This document shows, one piece after another, positions 12,694 to 28,636 of a stretch of 64,000 nucleotides of DNA. The stretch spans positions 2,106-66,105 of the forward strand of contig JBBQHZ010000003.1 in assembly GCA_038324445.1 (NCBI GenBank), in the 5' to 3' direction. The stretch comes from Rhodobacterales bacterium (GTDB lineage Bacteria; Pseudomonadota; Alphaproteobacteria; Rhodobacterales; Rhodobacteraceae). Both the position numbers and the translations under genes were made by a program. The first letter of the stretch is position 1, and each line of letters begins with the position of its first letter. The notes beneath the pieces are model-generated. The model searched no databases, was not told where the DNA came from, and saw nothing but the letters and a program-made list of their open reading frames with translations.

Positions 12694-13218
12694 TCACCCC
12701 GCAGGCGACCAGAGCGCGTCGGGGTTGGCGCGAGTCACGGCCATGCCGGTCGGATAGCTGACCAGCTCCAGCTGCATGCCCCACGGTGCGCGGAAGTAGA
12801 CCCAGGTCAGGCCTTCGGTAGGCCCTCCCGCCATGGTGGTCGGCTCCCCCTGAACCTCGACGCCATGTGCCTTGAGGTGCGAAACAGCTGCGTCCATGTT
12901 GTCGACCACGAAGCCCAGATGGGCCGCGCCGACGTCGCTGTTTGGCGGCGGAACCTGCGCGGCCCCGTCGAGGGAATATTCGAACAGCTCGAAGGCCGGG
13001 CCGTTCTTGCAGCGCAGCATGCGAAGCGTCTTTATGACCGCGCGCGGATGCACGCCCAGATGCACCGCCATCCAGTCGTCATCCGCCACGAAAGGCCCGA
13101 TCTCGAACACCAGGGTGCAGCCGATCACATCGACAAAGAAGCGTGTCGCGGCCTCCATGTCCGGAACGGTGAAGCCGACGTGATCGGTGCCGCTGAGGCC
13201 CGGCAGCCCGCCGCTCAT
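12694..13218 (-). CDS. VOC/glyoxalase-family metalloenzyme
   Basis: DHVGFTV..FELFEY..AHLGFVV..QLELV (H/E/H/E ligands); start MSGGLPG overlaps upstream stop. Confidence 0.85.
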   Translation of the reverse strand: MSGGLPGLSGTDHVGFTVPDMEAATRFFVDVIGCTLVFEIGPFVADDDWMAVHLGVHPRAVIKTLRMLRCKNGPAFELFEYSLDGAAQVPPPNSDVGAAHLGFVVDNMDAAVSHLKAHGVEVQGEPTTMAGGPTEGLTWVYFRAPWGMQLELVSYPTGMAVTRANPDALWSPAG

Positions 13219-13526
13219 CTGGTCGAGACCGGGTCGCAGACCATCGTCATCAGGCGCAGCTTCTGCAACTCGAACACCTTGTCCTTCACCTCGGCAAAGG
13301 CGGCCAGATGCGGTAGTTCTATGTGCTTGTCCCACTCGGCCCGGTCCGTCCAGTTCTCGTAGAAGGTGAACTCGGCCGGATCGTCATTGTCCTGATGCAG
13401 CCAGTATTCGACGCAGCCGGGTTCGGCCCGCGTCGGGTCGATCAGGCCGGTCAGGAAGGCGCGGGTTTCCTCGATCTGCCCATCTATGGCGCGCAGATGG
13501 GCGATGACGGTCAGTTGCTTGCTCAT
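13215..13526 (-). CDS. ABM-family putative quinol monooxygenase
   Basis: TRAEPGCVEY..FTFYENW..HIELPHL. Confidence 0.85.
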   Translation of the reverse strand: MSKQLTVIAHLRAIDGQIEETRAFLTGLIDPTRAEPGCVEYWLHQDNDDPAEFTFYENWTDRAEWDKHIELPHLAAFAEVKDKVFELQKLRLMTMVCDPVSTR

Positions 13527-13549
13527 GTCTCTGGTCTCCTCCGTTGAAC

Positions 13550-14611
13550 TCAGGTGTCGGCGCGGGCCTCGGCCATCACGGCCACAAGGCGGGCCTCGTT
13601 TTGCAGGCCGGGGGGCACCAGCCCGGCCTCGATATCGCGGGCGATCTCGACCACGCGGCGGTTCACCGGGGCGTCGCGGCCCACGGCGGCCAGCCCGTCG
13701 ATGACGATGCCGTGGACCTCGTCCACCTCGGCACGGCGGCCCTTGCGCCAATCCTGAAGCGAGCAGGTCAGCGTGTCGGCCATGGAATAGGTCGTCAGCA
13801 CCATGTCGAGGATTTCGTCAACGTAGCGGTCGGGGTGGGTGCTGATCCCGTCGGGCATCCCGATGATCGGCATGATGGTGGCCCCGTCGGCCAGCGCGGC
13901 CTGCATCGCTTCGTATCCGGCGGCGCGCATCACCTGCAACATGTCCGGGCGGCGCGCGGCGTCGTTGAGGGCGGCGTTGATGATCGCCGAGGGCACAAGT
14001 TCGGCGGCATTCACCACCAGTTTCATCCACTTGGCCGAGCGGATGTCGTCCACCACCTCCACATGGCCCGACACCCGCAAAAGGTCGGCCACCGCCTCCA
14101 CCCTGCCCTGCTGTTCGGGATCAAGCGCTCCCATGGCGAACCACGAACTGTCGTGGTCGTTCTGGCGGTTGGTGAAGCCGGGCTCCCACATGTTCGAGGC
14201 GATCTCGATCACCGCGCCGATGGTCCGTTCGCGGCCGACGATGGCGGCGATATCTTCGTGGGTCATGCCGTTTTGCAGACCCACGACAAAGCCATCCTTG
14301 GCCAATACCGGCCTTATCATCTCGACAGCCCAGCGGGTGTCATAGGCCTTGACCACTAGAAAGACCAAATCGAAGGCCTGCTTGATCTCGGCAATCTCGC
14401 ACAGGTGTAGGGCCTTGACCGGCGTATGCAGAACGCGGGTCGGCATGTTCACTGTCAGGCCATGGGTGCGCATCGCCTCTACATGGGCGGGCCATTGGTC
14501 GATGAAGGTCACGTCATGCCCCGCCAGCGCGAAATCCGCGGCGATGGACGCGCCCTGCGCCCCGGTTCCGAGGAAGGCGATGCGCGGATTGGTGTGGGTG
14601 CGAGGGGTCAA
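13550..14611 (-). CDS. Ketopantoate reductase (PanE/ApbA)-like oxidoreductase
   Basis: GTGAQG, VKAYD, LQNG, KWMKLVVN, SLQD..RRAEVD; TTG start with GGAG SD. Confidence 0.8.
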   Translation of the reverse strand: MTPRTHTNPRIAFLGTGAQGASIAADFALAGHDVTFIDQWPAHVEAMRTHGLTVNMPTRVLHTPVKALHLCEIAEIKQAFDLVFLVVKAYDTRWAVEMIRPVLAKDGFVVGLQNGMTHEDIAAIVGRERTIGAVIEIASNMWEPGFTNRQNDHDSSWFAMGALDPEQQGRVEAVADLLRVSGHVEVVDDIRSAKWMKLVVNAAELVPSAIINAALNDAARRPDMLQVMRAAGYEAMQAALADGATIMPIIGMPDGISTHPDRYVDEILDMVLTTYSMADTLTCSLQDWRKGRRAEVDEVHGIVIDGLAAVGRDAPVNRRVVEIARDIEAGLVPPGLQNEARLVAVMAEARADT

Positions 14612-14644
14612 GTCAGTGCTCCGATAGGGGGATTGGGCCGCGTG

Positions 14645-15430
14645 TCATTGCATGATCATCCCGCCGTCGATCATCAGGCATTGGCCCGTCATGTAAGCCG
14701 AGGCAGGCGACAGCAGGAAATCGACGGTGCCGGCGACATCCTCGGGCAGCGAGACGCGGCCAAGCGGGATGCCGGCGGCATAATCCTTGATCGCCTGTCC
14801 CGGCTCGGAAATGGCGCCCATCTCCAGCAGGTCACGATCCAGCCCGATCCACAGTTCGGTATCGACGATGCCAGGGCCAAAGGCGTTGACGGTGATACCA
14901 TGGGGCGCCAGTGTCTTGGCCGCCGCCTGCGTCAGGCTGATGACCGATGCCTTGCTGGCGCAATAGGGCGCAAAATCCCCGAACCCCGCGCGCCCGGCCA
15001 TGGAGGCGGTGCTGATGATCCGGCCCTTGTGGCCAGAAGCGATCATGGCTTTGCCCGCCTCCTGCATGCCGATCAGGACGCCGAGGCCGTTGACGGCCAT
15101 GATCTGGGTCCAGTTATCCTCGGTCGCTTCCAGAAACGGCATCGGGCGGTTGAACCCCGCGTTGTTGACCATACCGTGCAGGAAGCCGTAGGCACCTTCG
15201 CAGGCAGCAATGGCGGCCTTGACGCTGGCACGGTCGGTGACGTTGACGCGGCAGAACATCGCCCGCCCACCCGACGCCTCGATGGCTGTGGCGGCCTTTT
15301 GGCCCTCAGTCGCGTCGATATCGGCGATCACCACGCCATAGCCGGTGCGCGCCGCGTGCTGCGCGATGGCAAGGCCGATGCCGCGCGCGGCACCCGTGAC
15401 GATCACGCCACCCATGTTGTCATTCGTCAT
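14645..15430 (-). CDS. Classical SDR oxidoreductase (polyol/acetoin dehydrogenase-like)
   Basis: TGAARGIG, NNAG, YCASK, PGIVDT. Confidence 0.9.
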   Translation of the reverse strand: MTNDNMGGVIVTGAARGIGLAIAQHAARTGYGVVIADIDATEGQKAATAIEASGGRAMFCRVNVTDRASVKAAIAACEGAYGFLHGMVNNAGFNRPMPFLEATEDNWTQIMAVNGLGVLIGMQEAGKAMIASGHKGRIISTASMAGRAGFGDFAPYCASKASVISLTQAAAKTLAPHGITVNAFGPGIVDTELWIGLDRDLLEMGAISEPGQAIKDYAAGIPLGRVSLPEDVAGTVDFLLSPASAYMTGQCLMIDGGMIMQ

Positions 15431-15457: not shown

Positions 15458-16315
15458 TCAATCCACCTTGTGCAGGATGAAATCATAAGCCGAGCGCCAC
15501 TTGGTCCGGCCCGCCTCGACCGGATCAAACCGGGCGATCAGCGAGGCCTTCACACCGAAGACCGCGTCGGATGTCAGATAGGCATCGCCCGCCACAAAGG
15601 TGTGTGTGGTGACCGTGTTGTAGCCAGCGGCGCTGACGATGAAGTGCATGTGCGCGGGGCGATACGGATGCCGCCCCAGATGCCGCAGAAACTGGCCTAC
15701 CGGGCCATCGTCGGGGATCGGATAGGACACCGGTTTGATCCCCTCGAACCAGTAGCGGCCATCGGCGCCGGTGGTGAAGATGCCCCGGTTGTTGTGGCGC
15801 GGCTGCACATCGGGCTGCTGCACGTCGTAAAAGCCATCCTCGTTGTCGGACCAGACATCGATGGTCGCGCCCGCTATAGATGCGCCGTCCAGATCGCGGA
15901 CGATGCCCTCGAACAGGCAGGTCTCGACCCCGCCCTGCAACGTTATGTTGGTCCCCATCGGATAATGCGGCACGCCCGCCACATGGAACGGCCCCATCAC
16001 GGTGTTCTCCGTCGCACCCGAGGGGCGGCGGTTGTTGATCGCATCGACCAGCATCGATGCGCCCAGAACATCCGACAGCAAGATGAACTCTTGCCGGTTA
16101 TCGTCGCATATCTGTCCGGTGCGGGTCAGGAAACCGATGGCAAGCGCCCACTCCGCCTGCGTCAGTTCCACGTCCTTGATGAAGGCATGCAGGTGCCGAA
16201 CGAGGCTGGCCGCGACATCGGACAGACGCCCGTCGACGCCCGTGCCCATGCGCGCGTTGACCGCCTCGACCGAGCCGGTTTCGGTGAAATAATCGATGCT
16301 CGTGGGATCGGTCAT
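15458..16315 (-). CDS. Intradiol ring-cleavage dioxygenase (hydroxyquinol 1,2-dioxygenase-like)
   Basis: QEFILLSDVLG, GPFH, Fe ligands GFYD / SYPIP / RPAHMH. Confidence 0.88.
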   Translation of the reverse strand: MTDPTSIDYFTETGSVEAVNARMGTGVDGRLSDVAASLVRHLHAFIKDVELTQAEWALAIGFLTRTGQICDDNRQEFILLSDVLGASMLVDAINNRRPSGATENTVMGPFHVAGVPHYPMGTNITLQGGVETCLFEGIVRDLDGASIAGATIDVWSDNEDGFYDVQQPDVQPRHNNRGIFTTGADGRYWFEGIKPVSYPIPDDGPVGQFLRHLGRHPYRPAHMHFIVSAAGYNTVTTHTFVAGDAYLTSDAVFGVKASLIARFDPVEAGRTKWRSAYDFILHKVD

Positions 16316-16440
16316 GGGCACTTCTTTCCTGTCATCGGTTGCTTGGCCGCATCCCGCCAATGGATCGGCGTGGCCTGCGGCGAGGTGTCGAGCCGAAGGC
16401 TCGCCCGGATCTGCGTGGCGGCACCAACGGATGTGGTCAT
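16312..16440 (-). CDS. Candidate 42-aa small ORF or gene remnant
   Basis: GAGGGGGGAGAG immediately before ATG; stop overlaps the dioxygenase start (ATGA). Confidence 0.25.
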   Translation of the reverse strand: MTTSVGAATQIRASLRLDTSPQATPIHWRDAAKQPMTGKKCP

Positions 16441-16485: not shown

Positions 16486-19017
16486 TCAGTCCCCGGTCCG
16501 ACGGCGGGCGGTCGAATAGATCAGCGCCGCCGCAAGGATCAGGAGCCCTTGGAATCCGTATTGGAACGTCTGGGACAGGCCGAGGAACGACACCGCATTC
16601 AGCACCTCGGTCAATAAAAGCGCCCCCAGAACCGTGCCGATGAAGGTGCCTCGCCCGCCGCGCAGGCTGGTGCCGCCCAAGACCACCGCCGTGATGCTGG
16701 ACAGCGTGTAGTTCACCCCCTGCGCCGGATCGCCCACGCCGATCTGCGCCATCAGCATGATCGCCCCGAGCGCAGTCAGCAGCGACACGGTCACGTAACC
16801 GGCGATGAAAGTCCGATTAAGCCGAACGCCGATCCGACGGGCGGATTCCTCGTTCGAGCCGACCGCGCGCACCTGCCAGCCGGGCCGCAACCGGCGCAGG
16901 CCGATCTCGCCCGCGATTGCCAGTGCCACCAGAACGACGAAGGCGATCGGAACAGGACCCACGCGATAAGTGAGCGTGTCGATGACACTAAAGGCGATGT
17001 AGCCGCCCGGTCCGTCGCGCAGCACGAAGCTGAGGCCCTGAAGGCCGATGAACATGGCAAGTGTCGCCGCGATGGGCGTGAAATTGGCAAAGCGGATCAG
17101 GCAGCCATTGATCAGCCCGACGAGGATTGCCGCCACGAACATCAGCGCAAAGCCGGCCGCCATGGTCGCGGTCGAGCTGCCGTCGATCACGAAGAACGAC
17201 CCGATCACCACCAGAAACCCTGCCAACGGGCCAACCGACAGATCGATCCCGCCCATCAGCAGCGCCACGGTCTGGCCCAGCGCGATGAATCCCAGCGCAG
17301 TGGCGAGGATCAGGATATTCGAGACATTGAAGGCCGACAGGTAGTTGTCGTTCTGGCCAAAGACATATAGCGCCAGCGCCACGATCACGAGGGTCAGGGG
17401 CACCACGGTTGCATTGTCGGACTGGACGAAATGCCGGATCCGGTCGCCGAGCCGCCTCGGCGCATCCGCCCGTTCGCCTGCATGGTGGGCGTGGGTTTCC
17501 GCCTCGACCGCCGCGCCGACGATCCGCGCCTCGGTAATGGCGTCCCCGCGCAGGGCTTCAACGACCCGCCCGCGCGACAGGACGATGACCACATCGCACA
17601 GGCCCTGCAACTCGGCCGCATCGGAAGAGTTGACGATGACCGGCGTGCCGTTGCCCGAGACTTCGCGCAGGATGCGATAGATCTCGAACCTCGCACCCAC
17701 GTCGACGCCCTGCGTCGGCTCGTCAGCGACGATGAAGCCGGGCTCGGACAGGAGCGCGCGGGACATCACCACTTTTTGCTGGTTGCCGCCCGATAGCGAT
17801 AGGATCTTCGCATCGAGGCTGGCGGCCTTCACGGCAAGCGCGCCGAATACCTCCTGCACCTGTGCCACTTCGCGGCGGCGGTTAAGGATCCCCGCCGTGG
17901 CGAATTTCTCCAGCGCGGCGAAGGTCGCGTTCTCGCGGATAGTCAGATCGGCAGCAAGGCCTTCGGAGTGCCGGTCCGAGGGCATGAAGGCGCCTTCGGC
18001 CTTCAATTCTTTGGGGGCAAGCGTGCGCCCGCCCAGCGTGACGGCGCCCGTGGCCGGCAACAGCCCGGCCAGCGCCCGCATCAATTCGGCCTGTCCGTTA
18101 CCCTCCACACCCGCGACGCCAAGGATCTGGCCGCGCCCGACCTCGAACCCGACATCGGTGAATTTGGCCCCCGTCAGGCCCGTTACCGTGAAGTTCACAG
18201 GCGGCGCGGCATCGGGGCATTTCGGTGGGAAGGCGGACGCCAGCGTGCGCCCGACAATCATGTTGAGAAGATCCTGATTGCTCACATCCGCCACCATGGC
18301 CGTGCCACGGTGGCGCCCGTCGCGGAGCACGGTAACGCGGTCCGCGATCCGGCGTAGTTCGGCCAGGCGATGGGTGATGTAGATGACGGCCGTGCCCTTG
18401 GCCTTGAGGGCGCGAATGCGGAGGAACAGCATTTCCGTGGCGTCTTGATCCAACGAGGCTGTCGGCTCGTCCAGGATCAGCACCTTGGGGTTGGTCGCCA
18501 ACGCCTTGGCCAGTTCCAGCAGGTGCTTTTGCGCAACCGTCAACGTATCGCCGCGCGCACCCAGCGACACGTTCAGCCCGACATTGTCCAGCAGCGCGCG
18601 ACCGATGCCTTGCACCGACCCGCCCTCGAAGATCGCTTTCGGGACGGCAACGCGCAGGTTCTCCAGCACCGTCATGTCGGGCAGGATCGCGGGGTGCTGA
18701 TAGGAAATCGAAATCCCTAGCGCCGAGGTGATCTTGGGGCTGAGCCCGCGAACCGGTTGCCCGTCGACCTCGATCTGGCCCGTATTCGGCTGCAACACCC
18801 CGGTGATGATGTTCATCAATGTCGATTTGCCGGCGCCGTTCTCGCCCAGGATGGCATGAACCTCGCCGGGATAGAATTCGGCGCTGACATGGGAAAGCGC
18901 GTGGACCGCCCCGAAAGACTTGGACACATCGGTCAACCGGATCACCGCCTTGCCGGGAGCCGGGGCGTGGGTGGGTTCCGCGTTCGTCGCGGTGGAATGG
19001 AGCTGGACCACTTGCAT
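16486..19017 (-). CDS. Fused CUT2 sugar ABC ATPase + permease
   Basis: GENGAGKST, LILDEPT, LSGGNQQK, then an RbsC-like TM domain (GIDLSVG) in one 843-aa frame. Confidence 0.88.
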   Translation of the reverse strand: MQVVQLHSTATNAEPTHAPAPGKAVIRLTDVSKSFGAVHALSHVSAEFYPGEVHAILGENGAGKSTLMNIITGVLQPNTGQIEVDGQPVRGLSPKITSALGISISYQHPAILPDMTVLENLRVAVPKAIFEGGSVQGIGRALLDNVGLNVSLGARGDTLTVAQKHLLELAKALATNPKVLILDEPTASLDQDATEMLFLRIRALKAKGTAVIYITHRLAELRRIADRVTVLRDGRHRGTAMVADVSNQDLLNMIVGRTLASAFPPKCPDAAPPVNFTVTGLTGAKFTDVGFEVGRGQILGVAGVEGNGQAELMRALAGLLPATGAVTLGGRTLAPKELKAEGAFMPSDRHSEGLAADLTIRENATFAALEKFATAGILNRRREVAQVQEVFGALAVKAASLDAKILSLSGGNQQKVVMSRALLSEPGFIVADEPTQGVDVGARFEIYRILREVSGNGTPVIVNSSDAAELQGLCDVVIVLSRGRVVEALRGDAITEARIVGAAVEAETHAHHAGERADAPRRLGDRIRHFVQSDNATVVPLTLVIVALALYVFGQNDNYLSAFNVSNILILATALGFIALGQTVALLMGGIDLSVGPLAGFLVVIGSFFVIDGSSTATMAAGFALMFVAAILVGLINGCLIRFANFTPIAATLAMFIGLQGLSFVLRDGPGGYIAFSVIDTLTYRVGPVPIAFVVLVALAIAGEIGLRRLRPGWQVRAVGSNEESARRIGVRLNRTFIAGYVTVSLLTALGAIMLMAQIGVGDPAQGVNYTLSSITAVVLGGTSLRGGRGTFIGTVLGALLLTEVLNAVSFLGLSQTFQYGFQGLLILAAALIYSTARRRTGD

Positions 19018-19119
19018 CTTTCCGTCTCGGTCAGTGGGGCGGCAGTGCGTGTCGCGCGGTTCGAGTTATATGGCCCCGGGCAGGGTGTTCCCGCCCGGAG
19101 CCACGATGTTCCGGCAGGA

Positions 19120-20187
19120 TCAGTTGCCTACAAGCTCGCCCTGACGGTCGCCCGGAACACCCGAGGACAGGTAGGTGGCGCCAGGCAGATCAGCACGGCA
19201 CTGCACCGCATTGGGCTCGCCCGTGATCGAGTTCTCGAACGGACCCGAGACGAAGATCTCGGCCTCGGGGCCTTGGCCGCCGGTGGCTTCGGCAATCGCC
19301 CACTGGACCGCCAGACGCACGTTGTCGGTGCCGGTCTCGATGGTGAACAGCTCGAAATCCGGATTGGCTTCTTGGTTCTCGGTCCAGAAGCAGCCCAGCG
19401 AGTTACCATCGGAGGTCACCAGCATCGGGATCGAACGGTTGAAGTTCTGAAACACCGGCAGGGCGCCAACCAGCGACGGGCCGAAGTCCGACACGATCAC
19501 GTCGATATCCTCGTGCTGGGCGATCGCCGCGGACAGCACCTGCTGGGTCAGCGAGGGGTCCCAGTTGGTTACGGCGAAGGGCTCGGGGTTCAGGAAGACA
19601 TATTCCTCACCCAGCACCTGACGCATGCCTTCCAGTTCTTCCAGGCCCTGGCTGTTGCCGGCGGGGCCGGACAGGAACAGCAGGTTGGCACCCTCGGGGA
19701 ACGCCTCGGCGATCACGTTGCCCCAGGTGATGCCGTCATCCACGAAAGACGCACCAATGAAGCGGGTGTAGTTGGTTCCGGCCTCGCCGCCGACCAGCAC
19801 GCGGTAGGGCACCACGACCGCGCCCGAGCGATAGGCGTTGGTCAGGGCCGGCAGAACCGCCGGGCCCGCATCGCCGAAGACGACGATGGCATTGACGCCA
19901 CGGGCGGCCATCGAGTTGATGTCTGAAATCGCGCGCTGGGTGTCGCCCTGACCGTCGGCATAGATGTATTCGGTGATCTGCGGGCAACGCTCGGCTTCCT
20001 GGCGACCGGCCTCGGCCGTCACGATGCGCCAGCTGTTGCCACCGAACCCGTCGAGCAGCGCCAGCGACGCCTCGTTCGGGCCGCACCAGGACGGGACGTC
20101 CTGCGCGTTGACGGCAGTTCCGGCCACGGTGATGGCCATGGTTGCGGCGGCGATGGCCGCACCTCCCTTAAGATACGACAGTGTCAT
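19120..20187 (-). CDS. RbsB-like sugar/polyol ABC substrate-binding protein
   Basis: Sec signal MTLSYLKGG..AVNA; GGNSWR; periplasmic binding type I pattern. Confidence 0.85.
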   Translation of the reverse strand: MTLSYLKGGAAIAAATMAITVAGTAVNAQDVPSWCGPNEASLALLDGFGGNSWRIVTAEAGRQEAERCPQITEYIYADGQGDTQRAISDINSMAARGVNAIVVFGDAGPAVLPALTNAYRSGAVVVPYRVLVGGEAGTNYTRFIGASFVDDGITWGNVIAEAFPEGANLLFLSGPAGNSQGLEELEGMRQVLGEEYVFLNPEPFAVTNWDPSLTQQVLSAAIAQHEDIDVIVSDFGPSLVGALPVFQNFNRSIPMLVTSDGNSLGCFWTENQEANPDFELFTIETGTDNVRLAVQWAIAEATGGQGPEAEIFVSGPFENSITGEPNAVQCRADLPGATYLSSGVPGDRQGELVGN

Positions 20188-21205
20188 GGTCTTCCTCCTC
20201 CATTGGTTTTTGGTTGGTCTTTGAGAAACGCCCAGTCCAGTTGATCGAATACACACCGATCCCGAAGACGAGGGCGAGGGCTTGAACGATGGTCTGAGCC
20301 GAGTAGGGCACGCCGATGGACAGCGCGAACTGGCTGAGTTGATTGAGAAAAAAGGCGGCGATCATCACCGAGATCGGAAAGCCGCGCCCGCCCAGCAGGG
20401 ACACACCCGCCAACACGACCACCGCCACCGAGGGCAGCAGCAGGCTGTTGCCCTGAAATGCCGTGGGCTCGCGCGTGATTCCTGCAAGCAGGAACCCCGC
20501 GACGCAGTAATGCAGTTGCGCCAGCACGTAGGCCGCGCCTTCATAAAGCCGGACCCTAAGCCCCGCCGCGTGCGCAGCCAGCGGGTTGGCACCAATGGCC
20601 TCGAACCGGCGGCCCACGACGGTTTTTTTCAACACGAAGCTGACCAGCGCCAGAATTGCCACGGCGAAGAACACCGAATGCGGGATGCCAAGGCTGCGCC
20701 CACCTGCAATCTCCGCCAGAAGGTCGGTGGTGATGCGCGGCACACCGCCCGAAACGGCAAACACCGCCCCGAACAGCAACGCATTCATCCCGATGGTGGC
20801 GACGATCGCGTTGAGCCGGAAAAGCGCCACCATGACGCCGTTCAGAACGCCCGCAACCAACGCGCAGCCCAAAGCCACCAGTGCCGCCTGAAACAGCAAC
20901 GCGTCGTTGCCGTTGGCGGTGTGGGAGGCCACGACAACAGCGAGCGACACACCGCCCGGCACCGAAAGGTCAAACCCGCCCTGCTGGACCACCAGCATCT
21001 GGCCAAGACCGACGATCCCCAGCACCGCCGCGAAGGGCAGGCTTCCCATCAGTGAACCGGGGGTGACGGCAGAGGGTGCATAGATCACGCACAGCACGAT
21101 CAGCGCGATTGTCGAGACCACAATCGTCACAAACCCCTTCGCCACCGGCAGTGAGGACGCGGCAAGCGGGGTCTGGGTTCGGACTGTGGTGCCGGTCTGG
21201 GCCAT
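20168..21205 (-). CDS. CUT2 ABC permease
   Basis: QQGGFDLSV, GRRFEAIGANP. Confidence 0.88.
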   Translation of the reverse strand: MAQTGTTVRTQTPLAASSLPVAKGFVTIVVSTIALIVLCVIYAPSAVTPGSLMGSLPFAAVLGIVGLGQMLVVQQGGFDLSVPGGVSLAVVVASHTANGNDALLFQAALVALGCALVAGVLNGVMVALFRLNAIVATIGMNALLFGAVFAVSGGVPRITTDLLAEIAGGRSLGIPHSVFFAVAILALVSFVLKKTVVGRRFEAIGANPLAAHAAGLRVRLYEGAAYVLAQLHYCVAGFLLAGITREPTAFQGNSLLLPSVAVVVLAGVSLLGGRGFPISVMIAAFFLNQLSQFALSIGVPYSAQTIVQALALVFGIGVYSINWTGRFSKTNQKPMEEEDHDTVVS

Positions 21206-22245: not shown

Positions 22246-23282
22246 GACGCTTTCTCCAGATTGTCCATGGCCGGTCGGGCCACCGTTTCGATCTGCCCGC
22301 TGAGCGCAGATTTGAAGACGGCTTCCAGCAGGGCGATGTTGTTGATCAGATGCTCGCCGGTGACGGCATAGGCCTCCTTGCCGCGCACGGCGCGCGCGAA
22401 GGACACGAGGTTGTCCTTGACCGGTTCGGCCTTGCCGATCTCTTGCGTCTGGATCGGGCCGCCCGCCATGGCCGAGGTGACGATCCAGCCATCGGGCGCC
22501 TCCACATGGGCCTTGTCGCGGATGTCGATCCAGCCCTTCGATCCGAACACGGCGAAGCGCGAGATGAACGGGTTGGCCAGCGAGGCCGAAACATAGGACG
22601 TGCCGCCGCCCGCGAATTTCACAAAAGCCGCCACCGTGTCGCCCTGCGGCAGATCGGTGGACAGTTGCTCGCTGATGCACAGCACGCTTTCGGCCCGGCC
22701 CAGCAGGCGGACGGACAGGTCCAGCAGATGAATGCCTGTGGCCGTCATGCCCCCCGCAGGTGCCTGATCCGCCTTCAACCGCCAGTTGCTCCGGTCGAGC
22801 GAGACGAATTTGTCGTGGCTGAAATTGGCCTCGATCTGGTGGATGCGACCCAACTCGCCCGCATCGGCACGGGCCAGCATGTCGGCAATCGGTGGTTCCC
22901 ACCGGCGCTCGTGGCCCATGCCAAGGATCAGCCTGGCATCGGCGCAGAGCGCTACGGAGCGCGCGGCCTCCGCCGCCGTCAGGGCAAGGGGCTTTTCGCA
23001 GAAGATGTGCTTGCCCGCCGCCACGGCCTGCGCGATCTGGGCGGTGTGCAGGGAATGGGGCGTGGCCAGAACAACGGCTTCCACCTCCGGATCGGCCAGC
23101 GCATCGGCGTAATTGGCGCTGAGCTGGATGCCCTTGTCCGCGCAAAGGTCGCGCACGGAATCAAGGTTCGGCTCTACCGCGCGCACCACGGTGATGTCAT
23201 TCGGGGCGGCCTGCAACACTGCCAGCATCTTCTGGCCCCACCAACCCAGGCCGACCAAGGCGATTTTCACCGGACCCGACAT
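22242..23282 (-). CDS. Gfo/Idh/MocA oxidoreductase
   Basis: GLGWWG, ATPHSLH, CEKP, GIHLLD. Confidence 0.9.
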   Translation of the reverse strand: MSGPVKIALVGLGWWGQKMLAVLQAAPNDITVVRAVEPNLDSVRDLCADKGIQLSANYADALADPEVEAVVLATPHSLHTAQIAQAVAAGKHIFCEKPLALTAAEAARSVALCADARLILGMGHERRWEPPIADMLARADAGELGRIHQIEANFSHDKFVSLDRSNWRLKADQAPAGGMTATGIHLLDLSVRLLGRAESVLCISEQLSTDLPQGDTVAAFVKFAGGGTSYVSASLANPFISRFAVFGSKGWIDIRDKAHVEAPDGWIVTSAMAGGPIQTQEIGKAEPVKDNLVSFARAVRGKEAYAVTGEHLINNIALLEAVFKSALSGQIETVARPAMDNLEKAS

Positions 23283-23566
23283 CAGCGATTGTCCACGCGT
23301 TTGGAGAAGGGCCGGATCGACACGGTCTTCCAGAGTTCGGCCTTGGCAAAGGGATCGTTGCGGTTGAACGCCTCGACCTCGGCGAGGCTGTCGGCCTCCA
23401 GCACAAAGCAACTGCCGATCATCGTCGCGTTGTCATCGGCCAGAAGCGGGCCCGAGATCAGCGTCTTCACGCTTGCGGCTGCGAGGTAGGCCTTGTGCGC
23501 ATCGTAATGGGCCAGCCGCTTGTCGACGGCACCGTCATGGTCGAGGCAATGGATCACATAGTGCAT
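23282..23566 (-). CDS. YciI-family protein
   Basis: 95 aa; R..H..H, SGPLL, GSCFVL, DPF motifs. Confidence 0.85.
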   Translation of the reverse strand: MHYVIHCLDHDGAVDKRLAHYDAHKAYLAAASVKTLISGPLLADDNATMIGSCFVLEADSLAEVEAFNRNDPFAKAELWKTVSIRPFSKRVDNR

Positions 23567-23576
23567 GGGTCTGTCC

Positions 23577-24647
23577 TCAGGCCGGGATGATCTTGCGGGC
23601 ACGGAGTTCGTCGAACACGTCCGTGAAGCTTTCGCGGGTCGACTGATAGGCGGCGAAGCCCAGCTTGCGGCTGTTGGTCATGTCGGTGAAGCATTCCAGG
23701 TCTCGGCCCAGATCGGCGTCGCTGTGCCACCACGACGCCAGTTTGCCCACGGGAATGTCCTGCAACCCGTGTTTGGCGACGATGTCCTTCCAGATCGCGT
23801 CGGCCCCTGCCATCTGCCCTTCAAGGGGCGTCGGGTGACCGGGATATTCCGCGGCCGCGATCCCGAAGTAATCGGCAATCTGCTGCCACAGCCATGTCCA
23901 GCGGAAGATATCGCCGTTGGCGGTGTTGAAGGGAGTGTTCGCCGCTTCGGGCGTGGTAGCGGCCCAGTGCAACTGCTCTGCCAACAAGCGCGCATCGGTG
24001 ACATCCGTCGCAGCGTTGTATTGCTGGGGAGAGCCGGGATAGACGAATGGCATCCCCGTGTGCTTGCAGATCGAGGCATAGACGGCCAGCGTCACCGCCA
24101 TGTTCATGTAGTTGCCGATGACAAAGCCGATCATCGAATGGGGCCTATGGACGGACCAGGTGAAGCCGCGCTTCGCTGCCATCTCGAACAGCACGTCCTC
24201 CTGCGCGTAGTAGAAATTCGGCCCCGGCAAGCGTGGGCTGCTTTCCAGGAACGGCGTGTAGGGCTTCACCTTGGCGTAGTCGTCGAACGAGCCGAGGTAG
24301 TGCTTGAGGCCCGTCACCAGTGCGGCGTGTTTCACCGGCGCGTGCGCGATCCCGTCAAAGAGGTTGCGCACCATCAGGGCGTTGACGCGGACATTCTCGT
24401 CCTCGCTCGCCTGCCGTGCCCAGAGGCAGAAGAACACATGGGTGACGTCCCCTGCCGCTGCCAGCGCGGCTTTGCTACTGGCGGCATCGGTCAGATCAGC
24501 GGCGATGTGGCGATCGGACCAGTCGAGGTCGGCATCGCTGCGCGACACGGTCACAACCGTCCAGCCAAGGCTCTTGAGGTGGCGTCCGGCATAGCTGCCT
24601 GACAATCCCGTGGCCCCGACGATCAAGGCGATGTTCTGGTCCGTCAT
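23577..24647 (-). CDS. PRISE-like (progesterone 5-beta-reductase/iridoid synthase-type) extended SDR
   Basis: GATGLSG, TGLKHY, NFYYAQED, WSVHRP, FNTANGD. Confidence 0.85.
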   Translation of the reverse strand: MTDQNIALIVGATGLSGSYAGRHLKSLGWTVVTVSRSDADLDWSDRHIAADLTDAASSKAALAAAGDVTHVFFCLWARQASEDENVRVNALMVRNLFDGIAHAPVKHAALVTGLKHYLGSFDDYAKVKPYTPFLESSPRLPGPNFYYAQEDVLFEMAAKRGFTWSVHRPHSMIGFVIGNYMNMAVTLAVYASICKHTGMPFVYPGSPQQYNAATDVTDARLLAEQLHWAATTPEAANTPFNTANGDIFRWTWLWQQIADYFGIAAAEYPGHPTPLEGQMAGADAIWKDIVAKHGLQDIPVGKLASWWHSDADLGRDLECFTDMTNSRKLGFAAYQSTRESFTDVFDELRARKIIPA

Positions 24648-24684
24648 TGGGTGAGGTGTCCGTTCATTTCTTCAGGAAAGGGAA

Positions 24685-25752
24685 TCAGGTGGTTACGAGG
24701 ATCTTCAGGTGTTCCCCTGCGGGGTCGAGAAGCGCCTCGAACCCTTTGGCGACCACATCCTCGGCGGCGATGCGGGCGGTGATGACCTTCTCGACCGGGA
24801 AAATCCCGGCCTCGATCATCCGGGCGATGCGAGGCCAGATCTGCGTCGGATAGCACCATGTCGCTTCGACCGTGATGTCCTTGAGCGCCCAGAGCATCGC
24901 GTCGACGCTTGCGGGTTTCATGTGCAGGCCCACCTGAACGACCTTGCCCTGTCGGCGCACGGCCTCAGCGCAGGCATTGAGCGACCGTTCGAGGCCGACA
25001 CATTCAAGCGCCACGTCCACACCCACGCCCTCTTCGGTCAGATCACCGACCATGGTCTGCAACTGCCCGGTGGCGGGGTCGACGACATGGGCGTAGGGCG
25101 CAATCTCGGCGATGATGCGGCGGCGGTTCGGGTTGGGTTCCGACACGATGATCGTGGTTGCACCGGCTGCTTTCGCTGCCAGAACCGTCAGGGCCCCGAT
25201 GGGCCCCGCGCCCGATACCAGCACGGTCGATCCCGCCTCCACCCGGCCCCGGTCCACGCCATAGAGCGCGACGGCGGCAGGCTCGATCATCGCCGCCTGC
25301 TCGTCGGTGATCCCGTCCGGCACCGGCTGCGCGTTGTAATCCTTGATGACTGCCTTCTCGCCCATGCCGCCCCAGGCCCAGCTGAGGCCGACACATCCCA
25401 GAGAGGGCGACAGGTGATAGAGCCCGCGCTTGCCGTAATAGTCGTTGCGTGGTGCAACCAGCGGCTGGATCGAGATCCGGTCGCCCGCCTTGAGGGTGCC
25501 GACGGCGTCCCCCACCGCCAGCACACGGGCAGAGAACTCGTGTCCGAGGATCTGCGGATTGCTCGCGCCGGTATAGGCATGCGGTGCGCTTGGCGTGACG
25601 ATGGGGCCGGCGATGTATTCATGGAGGTCAGTGCCGCAAATGCCGGTGACGATCGGCGCGATCAGCACGTCATCGGGCAGCAGCGAGCCCGAGGGTTCTG
25701 CCACTTCTTCTACACGAATATCCTTGGCCCCGTGAAAACGTACCGCTTTCAA
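24685..25752 (-). CDS. MDR dehydrogenase, 2,3-butanediol/polyol dehydrogenase-like
   Basis: GICGTDLHEY, GHEFS, GAGPIG; TTG start behind GGGAGGGA. Confidence 0.85.
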   Translation of the reverse strand: MKAVRFHGAKDIRVEEVAEPSGSLLPDDVLIAPIVTGICGTDLHEYIAGPIVTPSAPHAYTGASNPQILGHEFSARVLAVGDAVGTLKAGDRISIQPLVAPRNDYYGKRGLYHLSPSLGCVGLSWAWGGMGEKAVIKDYNAQPVPDGITDEQAAMIEPAAVALYGVDRGRVEAGSTVLVSGAGPIGALTVLAAKAAGATTIIVSEPNPNRRRIIAEIAPYAHVVDPATGQLQTMVGDLTEEGVGVDVALECVGLERSLNACAEAVRRQGKVVQVGLHMKPASVDAMLWALKDITVEATWCYPTQIWPRIARMIEAGIFPVEKVITARIAAEDVVAKGFEALLDPAGEHLKILVTT

Positions 25753-25878
25753 TGGATCGTCCCTCCCCATTGCCCGGCGCGCAAAGGACGCGCCGCACCG
25801 TCGATCCTGACGCGCGGTCGAACCGCGTCTCCCCGTCTGGATAGACTCGATTCGTAGCAAACCCGCAGCGCCTTGGGT

Positions 25879-25930
25879 TGCCAAATTTCTCCGCTTCGGA
25901 AAAATTTGGCAGAACGCCTCCGAAGTGGAA
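25879..25930. promoter_or_regulatory. Palindromic operator region between divergent promoters
   Basis: TGCCAAATTT-c-TCCG-ctt-CGGA-a-AAATTTGGCA, plus a second inverted copy of the core (TTCCACTTCGGAG on the minus strand, 25918-25930). Confidence 0.6.
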
Positions 25931-25966
25931 ACATAATATGGCGCAAGGCCACAGGGAGGCAGGGCG

Positions 25967-26902
25967 ATGATCCGGACCGAGGATTCGATGACGGATGCGA
26001 GTGTTGCAGCGGGGGCAGGAAGCGCTCGGGTCGGCTGGATCGGGGCTGGAAAAATGGGCTTTCCCATGGCCTTGAACCTACTGGCCAAAGGAGTTCCCGT
26101 GACCGTCAGCGACCCGGTGGCCGAGCAGGTGGCGGCGCTGGTTGCGGCTGGGGCGACTCAGGCTGCTGCGCTATCGGACCAAGCTGCGTCGGACATCGTT
26201 TTCGCCACCCTGCCGCACGACGCGGCCCTTCTTGCCGTGGTCGAGGGCGACGGGAAAGCGCCGGGCCTGGCCGAAGTCCTGCGTCCCGGCGCGATCTTCG
26301 TGGAAATGAGCACGGTTTCGCCGACCTGTTCCGTCATGGTGGCCGAACGATTGGAAAAGACAGGCATTTCCTACATCCGCGCGCCGCTTTCTGGCAGCAC
26401 GACGATGGCCGAGACGGCATCCCTGACCGTGCTGGCATCGGGCGACGCTGCGGCCTGGGCGCGGGCGTTGCCGCATATCAAGCTGATGTCCGCGAGACAA
26501 TTCCTGGTCGGCGCAGGGGACGAAGCGCGATACATGAAACTGGTGCTCAACACGCTGGTCGGCGCTTCGTCCGCGATTTTGGCAGAGGCTCTGGCTCTTG
26601 GCGCAAGCGGTGGTCTCACGCGCGACACGATGATGGAGGTGATCGGCGCCAGCGCCGTCGCCTCGCCCCTGTTTGGCTACAAGGCCAAGGCGGTGGTCGA
26701 GGCGGACTATACCGCCGCCTTCACGGTTACGCAGATGATCAAGGATTTCACCCTGATCCTTGACGCCGCCCGCCGGAACGGGGTGACGCTGCCAACCACG
26801 GACTTGATCCTTGGCCTTTATCATGCTGCATCTGAGTCAGGCCTCGACAACGAAGATTTCTTCTCTTTGGTGAAATGGCAGCAAGACTTGTCCAACAGGT
26901 AG
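25967..26902 (+). CDS. 3-hydroxyisobutyrate/6-phosphogluconate dehydrogenase-family oxidoreductase
   Basis: GAGKMG, EMSTVSP, APLSGS, YMKLVLN. Confidence 0.88.
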   Translation: MIRTEDSMTDASVAAGAGSARVGWIGAGKMGFPMALNLLAKGVPVTVSDPVAEQVAALVAAGATQAAALSDQAASDIVFATLPHDAALLAVVEGDGKAPGLAEVLRPGAIFVEMSTVSPTCSVMVAERLEKTGISYIRAPLSGSTTMAETASLTVLASGDAAAWARALPHIKLMSARQFLVGAGDEARYMKLVLNTLVGASSAILAEALALGASGGLTRDTMMEVIGASAVASPLFGYKAKAVVEADYTAAFTVTQMIKDFTLILDAARRNGVTLPTTDLILGLYHAASESGLDNEDFFSLVKWQQDLSNR

Positions 26903-26908
26903 AATGCC

Positions 26909-28636
26909 GTGAACCATCAAGAACCGGTGCAACCGCAACAGGCCGAACTGACCAGCCACGAGTTGTCGCGGATCGTGGATTTTCTGCGCCGCCTCCGGGA
27001 CCCCTTTGACGCCCGGATGCCCGGCGCAAAACCGGATGTGTTCTTCAACATCCTCCTCGAGTTGATCGATGCGCGGCTGCACCTGAACCCGATCGACAAA
27101 TCTGGCCTGATCACGCTGGCCAAAGTGCCCTACAGCACCGGCAACCGGATGATCACCAAGATGATCGAGGATGGTCAGATCCAGCAGGTTCCGCGCGGCA
27201 AGGGGCTAAAGACCCACTTTCTGGAGCCGACCGAGGCGACGCTGAGTGCCTTCATGGCCTATGCGGGCCATGTGAAGGGCCACATGGCCAAGACCTTCGG
27301 CCTTCGCAAGGGCAGCGAGACCAACGAGTATTACTTCGGCGGCAGCTACTTCGCCTCGCAGATCATCTCGCCCATCCGGGGCGAGGATATCGCCGAGATG
27401 GGACTGGGCGATATCAAGTTCCTGCTCAACGATGACAATTACTTCATCGCGATGCGGAACATGTGGGCCGATTTCCGCAACGATTTCGGCCGTCGCAGCA
27501 GTTTTGATCTGCACCAGTTGCCCGACCTCTACGCCAAGGCCCGCAAGACCTTTGCTGGGGATGCGCCCCTATATGACGTTGTTGCCATCAACTTTCCCTG
27601 GCTGGGCGAATTCGCAGAACGCGGCGATCTGGCCCCCCTCGACGCGCTGATGACAGATGCCGCGATCAATCCGCTGGATTTCCATCCCTCAGTCTGGGGC
27701 ACGGGCAACTGGAAGGGCACGCAATACGGCATCCCGCTCTATTGCACGATCGAGATCCTCGCCGCGCGGCAAGACCTGTTCGAGGCCGCGGACATCGCCT
27801 ATCCCAAGACCTTCGACGAAACCATCGCCGCCGCCCGCGCCTTCCACGATCCGGCCAAGGAATTTTACGGCATCGCCTGGAACGGCCAGCGCGGCATGCC
27901 GATTGCCAATTCGTTCATGTTCTTTCTGGCTGCCTGCCGCCAGACTGTCATCGACATGCCCCTGCGCAATCAGGAAAGCTGGAGCTTCGACACCTTCGAG
28001 ACTCTCAAGCTGCGGATCAATACCGAGGATGCGCTGGAGGTGATCGACTACATGAAGCAACTGGCCGAGGTGGCCCCGCCCGACATCTCAACCATGGATT
28101 GGGAACGGCGCATCCACTACTTCATGTCCGGTCAGGTCTCGATGACCTATTGCTGGACCATGCGCGCGGCGAGGTTCGAGCATGAACTGAGCTCGCGCGT
28201 TGCCCGGCGCGTCGCCTATCTGCCGCCGCCGTCCCGCAGGATCCGGCGCGTTTCTGCCCCGGTGGGGGGCTTCTTGCTGACCATCCCGTCCTGTGTCGAT
28301 CCGGCGCGCCAGAAGCAGATCATCAACGCCATCGCGTGGATGGTGTCGCCCGAGGCGATGAAGGCGCATGTGAAGAACGGCTTCCCGGTCGCACCCCGCT
28401 TTTCGGTCTGCGCCGACCCCGAGGCTTTGGCCTCTTCGCCGATCGTCAGCATGGTCGACAGGATGGCGCGCAAGAACGAGTTGGTGACATGGGCCCGCCC
28501 CCCTGTGCCGCACTTCAACCTGATCGAACGGACGCTGGGCATCGAGATTCACGAGGCCGTCTTCAACGGCAAACCCGCGCAGCAGGCGCTTGTGGACGCC
28601 GAAAACAGCATACTTAGCCAAGTTCGATCCGGTTGA
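26909..28636 (+). CDS. N-terminal winged-helix domain fused to a family-1 (CUT1) solute-binding domain; probable cytoplasmic one-component regulator
   Basis: No signal peptide; KVPYSTGNRMITKMIEDGQIQQVP helix/wing pattern; C-terminal YDVVAINFPWLGEFA, QYGIPLY, FYGIAW SBP motifs. Confidence 0.75.
   Translation: MNHQEPVQPQQAELTSHELSRIVDFLRRLRDPFDARMPGAKPDVFFNILLELIDARLHLNPIDKSGLITLAKVPYSTGNRMITKMIEDGQIQQVPRGKGLKTHFLEPTEATLSAFMAYAGHVKGHMAKTFGLRKGSETNEYYFGGSYFASQIISPIRGEDIAEMGLGDIKFLLNDDNYFIAMRNMWADFRNDFGRRSSFDLHQLPDLYAKARKTFAGDAPLYDVVAINFPWLGEFAERGDLAPLDALMTDAAINPLDFHPSVWGTGNWKGTQYGIPLYCTIEILAARQDLFEAADIAYPKTFDETIAAARAFHDPAKEFYGIAWNGQRGMPIANSFMFFLAACRQTVIDMPLRNQESWSFDTFETLKLRINTEDALEVIDYMKQLAEVAPPDISTMDWERRIHYFMSGQVSMTYCWTMRAARFEHELSSRVARRVAYLPPPSRRIRRVSAPVGGFLLTIPSCVDPARQKQIINAIAWMVSPEAMKAHVKNGFPVAPRFSVCADPEALASSPIVSMVDRMARKNELVTWARPPVPHFNLIERTLGIEIHEAVFNGKPAQQALVDAENSILSQVRSG

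Follow-up and report, generated by a model that had tools for sequence, protein, structure and literature searches.

What role does an enone reductase of the PRISE family play in a bacterial catabolic operon, and does it replace the maleylacetate reductase (MAR) that acts after hydroxyquinol cleavage? The question is raised by a stretch of 64,000 nucleotides from a Rhodobacterales bacterium (assembly GCA_038324445.1, contig JBBQHZ010000003.1; hereafter the window), where a PRISE gene on the minus strand, at positions 23577-24647, shares an operon with a hydroxyquinol-type dioxygenase gene. The replacement had been proposed in an earlier note on this DNA. We find no support for it: canonical MARs of the iron-containing alcohol dehydrogenase (Fe-ADH) family co-occur with orthologous PRISE genes in nine clusters, and another is encoded in the bacterium's own genome. 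The context of the gene points to an earlier position in the pathway—it is rather probable that PRISE acts in the upper part of the operon, before ring cleavage, on a cyclohexenone or hydroxybenzoquinone en route to hydroxyquinol.

Family membership and pocket residues

The gene encodes an atypical short-chain dehydrogenase/reductase (SDR) of 356 amino acids, and its membership in the PRISE family is confirmed far beyond chance. The product scores 77.2 bits with the Pfam family PF22917 (PRISE), for which the curated cut-off is 27. Full-length alignment of residues 5-355 with Digitalis progesterone 5β-reductase (2v6f) gives 262 bits and E 8e-77, and the ten best matches among solved structures comprise only progesterone 5β-reductases and iridoid synthases of plants, each aligned full-length at E-values from 8e-77 to 2.5e-67. 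The complete motif set that the earlier note had read from the translation is borne out: the Rossmann motif GATGLSG (GxxGxxG), THVFFCLW, TGLKHY with Lys115 (TGxKHY), NFYYAQED with Tyr146 (NFYYxxED), WSVHRP and ICKH. The catalytic lysine precedes the catalytic tyrosine, and both are invariant across the 81 aligned bacterial homologues. The predicted activity is most likely the NAD(P)H-dependent reduction of α,β-unsaturated carbonyls.

The designation "plant-type" in that note holds for the family but not for the substrate pocket, where the residues are polar in all 81 bacterial PRISEs. We take Gly204, Asn205, Phe343 and Ile347 of the Digitalis enzyme to be the plant pocket residues, and the chain numbering in the 2v6f alignment agrees. 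The window PRISE does not have this plant-like hydrophobic pocket: Gly204 corresponds to His170, Asn205 to Ser or Thr in bacteria (Ser171 here), Phe343 to His308 and Ile347 to Asp312. The bacterial enzymes also contain a two-residue insertion carrying Arg315, a position at which the plant enzymes have a gap. His170, His308, Asp312 and Arg315 are invariant in 81 of the 81 bacterial PRISEs in the alignment, that of the window included, and may mark a bacterial subtype with a polar pocket. Such differences appear to define a subtype and do not exclude the bacterial enzymes from the PRISE family; judged from the residues, they argue for a probable preference for polar substrates in general, and for no particular compound.

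Compared with the plant PRISEs (progesterone 5β-reductase 2v6f/2v6g, VEP1, iridoid synthase 5dbf, 5coa), the window enzyme shares the Rossmann motif, the TGxKHY lysine, the NFYYxxED tyrosine and WSVHRP, and retains the equivalents of Phe153, Tyr156 and Trp106 together with one of the two arginines that bind the NADPH phosphate. The setting is different: the bacterial gene sits in a catabolic operon, whereas the plant enzymes belong to specialised metabolism.

Maleylacetate reductase in PRISE clusters

We compared 17 loci from genomes and a few from metagenomes (L numbers below), fetched with 10 kb flanks, by mapping the proteins of the window cluster and the MAR of the same genome onto them with tblastn; the metagenome scan contributed four informative loci. 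Nine orthologous clusters (PRISE 79-86% identical) pair an Fe-ADH-type MAR with a hydroxyquinol dioxygenase, in at least three arrangements. Six are same-operon cases: in L013-L017 and L105 the order MDR1-PRISE-YciI-Gfo-MDR2-importer-MAR-dioxygenase runs along one strand with short gaps, MDR1 and MDR2 being zinc medium-chain dehydrogenases/reductases (MDRs) and Gfo a Gfo/Idh/MocA oxidoreductase. In L019 and L022 the dioxygenase and MAR genes lie on the opposite strand just past the importer, and in L020 the dioxygenase-MAR pair is found ~1.4 kb beyond a predicted regulator gene. The MAR of L013 scores 454 bits against the characterised MAR GraC (3w5s), and Fe-ADH domains are present in all four of the cluster MARs tested. 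Across clusters the dioxygenases show 54-78% and the MARs 49-60% identity. Since both the arrangements and the lineages differ, the co-location is not a single inherited accident. Mutual exclusion of PRISE and MAR, suggested in the earlier note as a check of its proposal, is refuted by these nine loci. One further locus, L028, has a MAR ~6 kb downstream of PRISE.

Among the clusters compared, a dioxygenase without an adjacent MAR is found only in the window and L027. The observation that an Fe-ADH-type MAR is "absent here" stands for the window, which contains no Fe-ADH gene, but fails for the genome, where a canonical MAR is encoded on a different contig, C45, at 24073-25122 (412 bits to the Agrobacterium tumefaciens MAR 3hl0). 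The only other Fe-ADH match in the genome is of the methanol/propanediol type, on C185. In the window, ~125-170 nt, depending on the start codon chosen, separate the ABC gene from the dioxygenase gene downstream; MAR occupies that place in relatives, and no remnant of it was found there. The L027 genome likewise has a MAR elsewhere, and the genomes of L024 and L029 hold both a dioxygenase and a MAR elsewhere. Among the genomes of MAR-less clusters checked, that of L026 (a 3.1-Mb metagenome-assembled genome, MAG) is the only one in which no MAR was found. The accessory SDR and the PanE-like gene of the window operon were considered as MAR substitutes and rejected, as both also occur alongside MAR.

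The C45 gene, the only canonical MAR of the genome, belongs to a LysR-controlled cluster (C45 ~22450-26440; L093 8450-12438) with a two-domain VOC-fold dioxygenase, a dienelactone-hydrolase-like esterase and a Peripla_BP_6 binding protein as neighbours; the 12.6 kb of this contig that were examined contain no intradiol dioxygenase. A second hydroxyquinol-type dioxygenase, 58% identical to that of the window, is encoded on contig C2 at ~67030-70800 (L094 10031-13800), where it adjoins a 597-aa FAD aromatic-ring hydroxylase and a branched-chain-type ABC importer. It also lacks an adjacent MAR, and the C45 MAR may therefore serve several pathways.

Conservation of the cluster

PRISE is linked to the YciI-Gfo-MDR2 genes and the importer, while the dioxygenase and MAR vary between loci. 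The orthologue family is 77-92% identical and comes mostly from Rhodobacterales, with some members from Hyphomicrobiales and Acetobacteraceae. PRISE, Gfo/Idh/MocA and MDR2 are present together in every orthologous locus long enough to reveal them, the importer follows in nearly all and YciI occurs in most; MDR1 usually accompanies them, as do the divergent dehydrogenase and the binding-domain protein. All-against-all clustering revealed no other conserved gene in the island, a dedicated dehydratase included. Of the 15 clusters sequenced far enough past the importer, 10 have a hydroxyquinol dioxygenase in or beside them, and for four more one is encoded elsewhere in the genome; none is found within the fetched sequence of L024, L026 and L029. 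In the loci compared, the linkage of PRISE thus does not track the ring-cleavage dioxygenase.

The cluster-associated PRISEs form one clade with a support of 99 in the Shimodaira-Hasegawa-like approximate likelihood ratio test (SH-aLRT), a result that is partly circular, the group having been preselected by identity. In an Acetobacteraceae MAG (L056 828-5434), MDR1-YciI-Gfo-MDR2 are followed by a PRISE only 54% identical, which groups within the other bacterial clade when the tree is rooted on distant paralogues. The module has therefore joined PRISE enzymes independently at least twice.

Searches of 18 genomes of the same genus found neither PRISE nor MDR2 nor this dioxygenase lineage, and a sample of 400 genomes of the class yielded no further MDR2 orthologues. 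The whole cluster is accessory. Its flanking genes are partly conserved in the same-genus genomes but are not adjacent there, so no clean insertion site can be defined.

Operon in the window

In the operon (Table 1), PRISE comes second, 37 nt downstream of MDR1, and the YciI gene starts 10 nt past the PRISE stop codon. The nearest solved relative of the YciI protein is TftG, a 5-chloro-2-hydroxyhydroquinone dehydrochlorinase (4lbh, E 1.9e-11). The dehydrogenases resemble inositol enzymes at a distance: the Gfo/Idh/MocA protein is weakly IolG-like (110 bits, where the cut-off is 355), with scyllo-inositol dehydrogenase and 1,5-anhydrofructose reductase among its neighbours in the PDB; the best NCBIfam match of MDR2 is the scyllo-inosose 3-dehydrogenase IolM (165 bits against a cut-off of 450); and MDR1 is weakly Tdh- and IolM-like, under the family cut-offs. 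The binding protein of the importer belongs to the ribose/xylose/inositol class.

Both MDRs keep intact catalytic zinc ligands (GIC..D, as GICGTD in MDR1, and GHE) and are therefore alcohol dehydrogenases, not enoyl reductases. This leaves PRISE as the only predicted C=C reductase of the conserved core; the possibility that MDR1 or MDR2 is a zinc-less enoyl or quinone reductase competing with PRISE was rejected on the same grounds.

Hydroxyquinol cleavage, which the earlier note had invoked, agrees with the dioxygenase encoded in the same operon as PRISE. This protein scores 415 bits against 8r2x and ~243 bits against the hydroxyquinol dioxygenases 3n9t and 1tmx, compared with no more than 120 bits against catechol dioxygenases, and is thus closer to the hydroxyquinol type than to the catechol type. 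The tail genes beyond it (SDR, PanE-like, ABM, VOC) occur in only part of the orthologous clusters. A scan for promoters and terminators gave results no better than shuffled sequences.

Table 1. Genes of the operon and its divergent neighbours, with positions in the window
Feature	Position	Strand	Basis or components
Family-1 solute-binding-domain protein	26909-28636	+	Divergent from operon
3-hydroxyacid dehydrogenase-like gene	25967-26902	+	Divergent from operon
Zinc polyol-type MDR dehydrogenase 1 (MDR1), 361 aa	24685-25770	-	Pfam ADH_N and ADH_zinc_N; start refined
PRISE-family atypical SDR, 356 aa	23577-24647	-	PF22917, motifs, PDB matches
YciI/YCII-family protein, 94 aa	23282-23566	-	Pfam YCII PF03795, 60.9 bits
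Gfo/Idh/MocA oxidoreductase, 346 aa	22242-23282	-	Pfam; ATG overlaps YciI stop codon
Zinc polyol-type MDR dehydrogenase 2 (MDR2), 326 aa	21265-22245	-	Pfam; ATGA overlap with Gfo/Idh/MocA gene
CUT2 sugar-type ATP-binding cassette (ABC) importer	16486-21205	-	Permease 20168-21205; Peripla_BP_4 binding protein 19120-20256; ATPase-permease fusion 16486-19017
Hydroxyquinol-type intradiol dioxygenase	15458-16360	-	PDB matches
Operon tail, variable	12694-15430	-	SDR 14645-15430; PanE/ApbA-like reductase 13550-14611; ABM-domain protein within 13215-13751; VOC/glyoxalase-fold protein 12694-13335

Stand-alone bacterial PRISEs

The spread of the PRISE/VEP1 family among bacteria by lateral transfer has been described previously (Tarrío et al. 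2011, PMC3144213). Our literature searches found no physiological role for any bacterial homologue. Stand-alone homologues from Pseudomonas, Erwinia, Pantoea, Chryseobacterium and Massilia are 51-57% identical to the window enzyme and have the same catalytic and pocket residues, but form a clade separate from the cluster PRISEs (SH-aLRT 89 and 99). Their conserved neighbours are limited to LysR- or Crp-type regulators and generic reductases, without the importer, the dehydrogenase module or the dioxygenase.

In the set of stand-alone PRISEs (L031-L092, e.g. L035 9300-9908 and L031 13725-14615), a Crp-like cNMP-binding regulator is encoded directly upstream in 13 Bacteroidota loci, and a LysR regulator nearby in 11 loci, mostly of Enterobacterales and Acetobacteraceae. 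Aldo-keto reductases, SDRs and 3-hydroxyacid dehydrogenases are also frequent in these neighbourhoods, which look like a carbonyl or electrophile stress regulon.

Proposed role of PRISE

The combination of IolG/IolM-like dehydrogenases, the class of the importer, the TftG-like YciI protein and the lack of a kinase, an aldolase and a ring hydroxylase suggests a route from a polyol to hydroxyquinol. The operon would be a horizontally acquired catabolic one, whose sugar-type ABC system may import a cyclitol-like polyol. Up to three dehydrogenases—Gfo/Idh/MocA and the two zinc MDRs—would oxidise this compound, and loss of water would then give a cyclohexenone or hydroxybenzoquinone, with YciI probably assisting, given that its nearest solved relative TftG eliminates HCl from 5-chlorohydroxyquinol. 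PRISE would add hydride to the enone or quinone and bring the ring to the oxidation level of hydroxyquinol, which the intradiol dioxygenase would open to maleylacetate. Reduction of maleylacetate would fall not to PRISE but to the canonical Fe-ADH-type MAR, encoded in the cluster in relatives and at C45 in this genome. We infer the substrate class, the exact PRISE substrate and the direction of the reaction; a cyclic enone intermediate, which the earlier note had offered as its second option, is plausible as the substrate on gene context only.

Mass balance is compatible with such a route from more than one starting compound. An inosose minus three H2O equals hydroxybenzoquinone, which one two-electron reduction converts to hydroxyquinol. 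Cyclohexane-1,2,4,5-tetrol gives tetrahydroxybenzene through three dehydrogenations, and one dehydration and one reduction then lead to hydroxyquinol. A more specific version is tentative: PRISE and the TftG-like YciI may form an elimination-reduction pair that strips one hydroxyl from an oxidised cyclitol (from tetrahydroxybenzene or a keto-cyclitol tautomer, through hydroxybenzoquinone or an enone, to hydroxyquinol) and would thereby complete an oxygenase-free aromatisation of the imported cyclitol for intradiol cleavage.

Several points weigh against a role of PRISE on the way to hydroxyquinol. All similarity to inositol enzymes lies below the family cut-offs, and simple routes from deoxy-inositol or cyclohexanetetrol to hydroxyquinol require no C=C reduction. 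Quinone reduction is not a known activity of PRISEs. YciI is missing from four orthologous loci (L024, L029, L103 and L104), so PRISE is not strictly dependent on it. The pocket residues also occur in stand-alone bacterial PRISEs outside any catabolic cluster, and therefore say nothing specific about this pathway. Finally, the comparison draws on mutually related loci, many of them MAG contigs.

In these four cluster variants Gfo/Idh/MocA directly follows PRISE, and in L029 and L103 a divergent SDR gene lies upstream in place of MDR1.

Other assignments of PRISE are less probable. That it reduces the C=C bond of maleylacetate to give 3-oxoadipate, standing in for a missing Fe-ADH-type MAR, is the least credible of them and very improbable. 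Maleylacetate is an enone, the operons of the window and L027 have a dioxygenase but no MAR, and a carboxylate could be bound by Arg315, an invariant residue close to the pocket; this residue is, however, equally invariant in PRISEs with no dioxygenase nearby. In nine clusters a canonical MAR is encoded in the operon or neighbourhood of an orthologous PRISE, and the window's own genome and that of L027 encode one as well. PRISE is tied to the dehydrogenase module and importer and not to the dioxygenase, as the fetched sequences of L024, L026 and L029 illustrate. The two enzymes are alike in that both would reduce an enone C=C with NAD(P)H, but their folds are unrelated, PRISE being an SDR and MAR (GraC 3w5s, A. 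tumefaciens 3hl0) an Fe-ADH. A protective function has a somewhat better claim, and is still unlikely: PRISE would re-reduce auto-oxidised hydroxyquinol (2-hydroxy-1,4-benzoquinone) or clear reactive enone by-products, like the stand-alone PRISEs encoded beside LysR- and Crp-type regulators and aldo-keto reductases. Hydroxyquinol readily auto-oxidises, as is general chemistry, and the second-tier PRISEs (51-57% identical) keep only regulators and generic reductases nearby while having the same pocket residues. Its translational coupling to the dehydrogenase module and the near-invariant synteny between the two are nevertheless more typical of an obligatory step, and PRISE is retained in clusters with no dioxygenase nearby.

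The enzyme might also act first, on an imported α,β-unsaturated ketone (a hydroxylated cyclohexenone, for instance, or an enone derived from a sugar), before the dehydrogenases. Its place as second gene of the operon and its conservation with the importer fit this assignment, and the plant members of the PRISE family take both cyclic and acyclic small enones as substrates. The importer's binding protein, though, falls in the monosaccharide/polyol type, and three polyol dehydrogenases argue for a saturated polyol; with no candidate compound known, we give an imported enone slightly less credence than protection. Doubt is greater again for a carbonyl reductase, epimerase or similar extended-SDR enzyme that would act on a keto-cyclitol and not reduce a C=C bond. 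PF01370 (NAD-dependent epimerase/dehydratase) also matches the product, with 41 bits in Pfam, and the residues at the pocket positions are polar, unlike those of the plant enzymes. Against such an activity stand the PRISE-specific reversed Lys...Tyr order and the intact signature motifs, the 1,4-enone reductase activity given in the structure titles of every characterised family member found, and the four or five carbonyl/alcohol oxidoreductases that the operon already has. We therefore retain the role before ring cleavage as the preferred reading.

Relation to known pathways

A parallel to a PRISE step before ring cleavage is offered by the tft pathway of Burkholderia cepacia AC1100, a hydroxyquinol pathway composed of the dehydrochlorinase TftG, a hydroxybenzoquinone reductase, the dioxygenase TftH and the MAR TftE. 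TftG eliminates HCl to give 2-hydroxy-1,4-benzoquinone, which the reductase then converts to hydroxyquinol. In the window operon, too, a TftG-like YCII protein is encoded next to a reductase; a hydroxyquinol dioxygenase follows downstream, joined in relatives by MAR. The window operon differs in lacking a chlorinated substrate and a monooxygenase and in its sugar/polyol-type input, and the partner reductase would be PRISE. By analogy, the elimination-then-reduction logic of tft could apply to the window operon.

A published precedent for inositol-type uptake tied to hydroxyquinol cleavage is the iolT2-rhcM2D2 operon of Corynebacterium glutamicum (IhtR regulon), which links an inositol transporter to a hydroxyquinol dioxygenase and a MAR and has 1,2,4-trihydroxybenzene as its inducer (PMC7764795). 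Its transporter belongs to the major facilitator superfamily, in contrast to the CUT2 ABC importer of the window, and PRISE, YciI and MDR genes are absent from it. Searching the literature, we found nothing relevant on a cyclitol-to-hydroxyquinol pathway, on a characterised bacterial PRISE or on the source of 8r2x.

The window PRISE is a context-defined addition to a known enzyme family. The cluster clade gives a bacterial PRISE a defined and conserved context of polyol importer, dehydrogenase module and hydroxyquinol cleavage, which makes its role directly testable, and setting PRISE aside as a non-homologous MAR spares misdirected assays. Should the elimination-reduction reading be true, it would provide the first physiological role for a bacterial PRISE. 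Sugar-type uptake feeding aromatic ring cleavage without a hydroxylase makes the whole operon a more interesting object than PRISE alone.

Other observations

Two genes in or beside the cluster were noted for their domain layouts. The ATPase-permease fusion of the importer, an 843-aa protein, carries two ABC_tran domains (a double ATPase) fused to a BPD_transp_2 permease domain, and has full-length tblastn matches of 63-76% identity in 14 related loci. In the family-1 solute-binding-domain protein, the binding domain starts only at residue 206 of an open reading frame of 575 aa. It has no partner permeases adjacent; the gene is retained beside the cluster in 13 loci.

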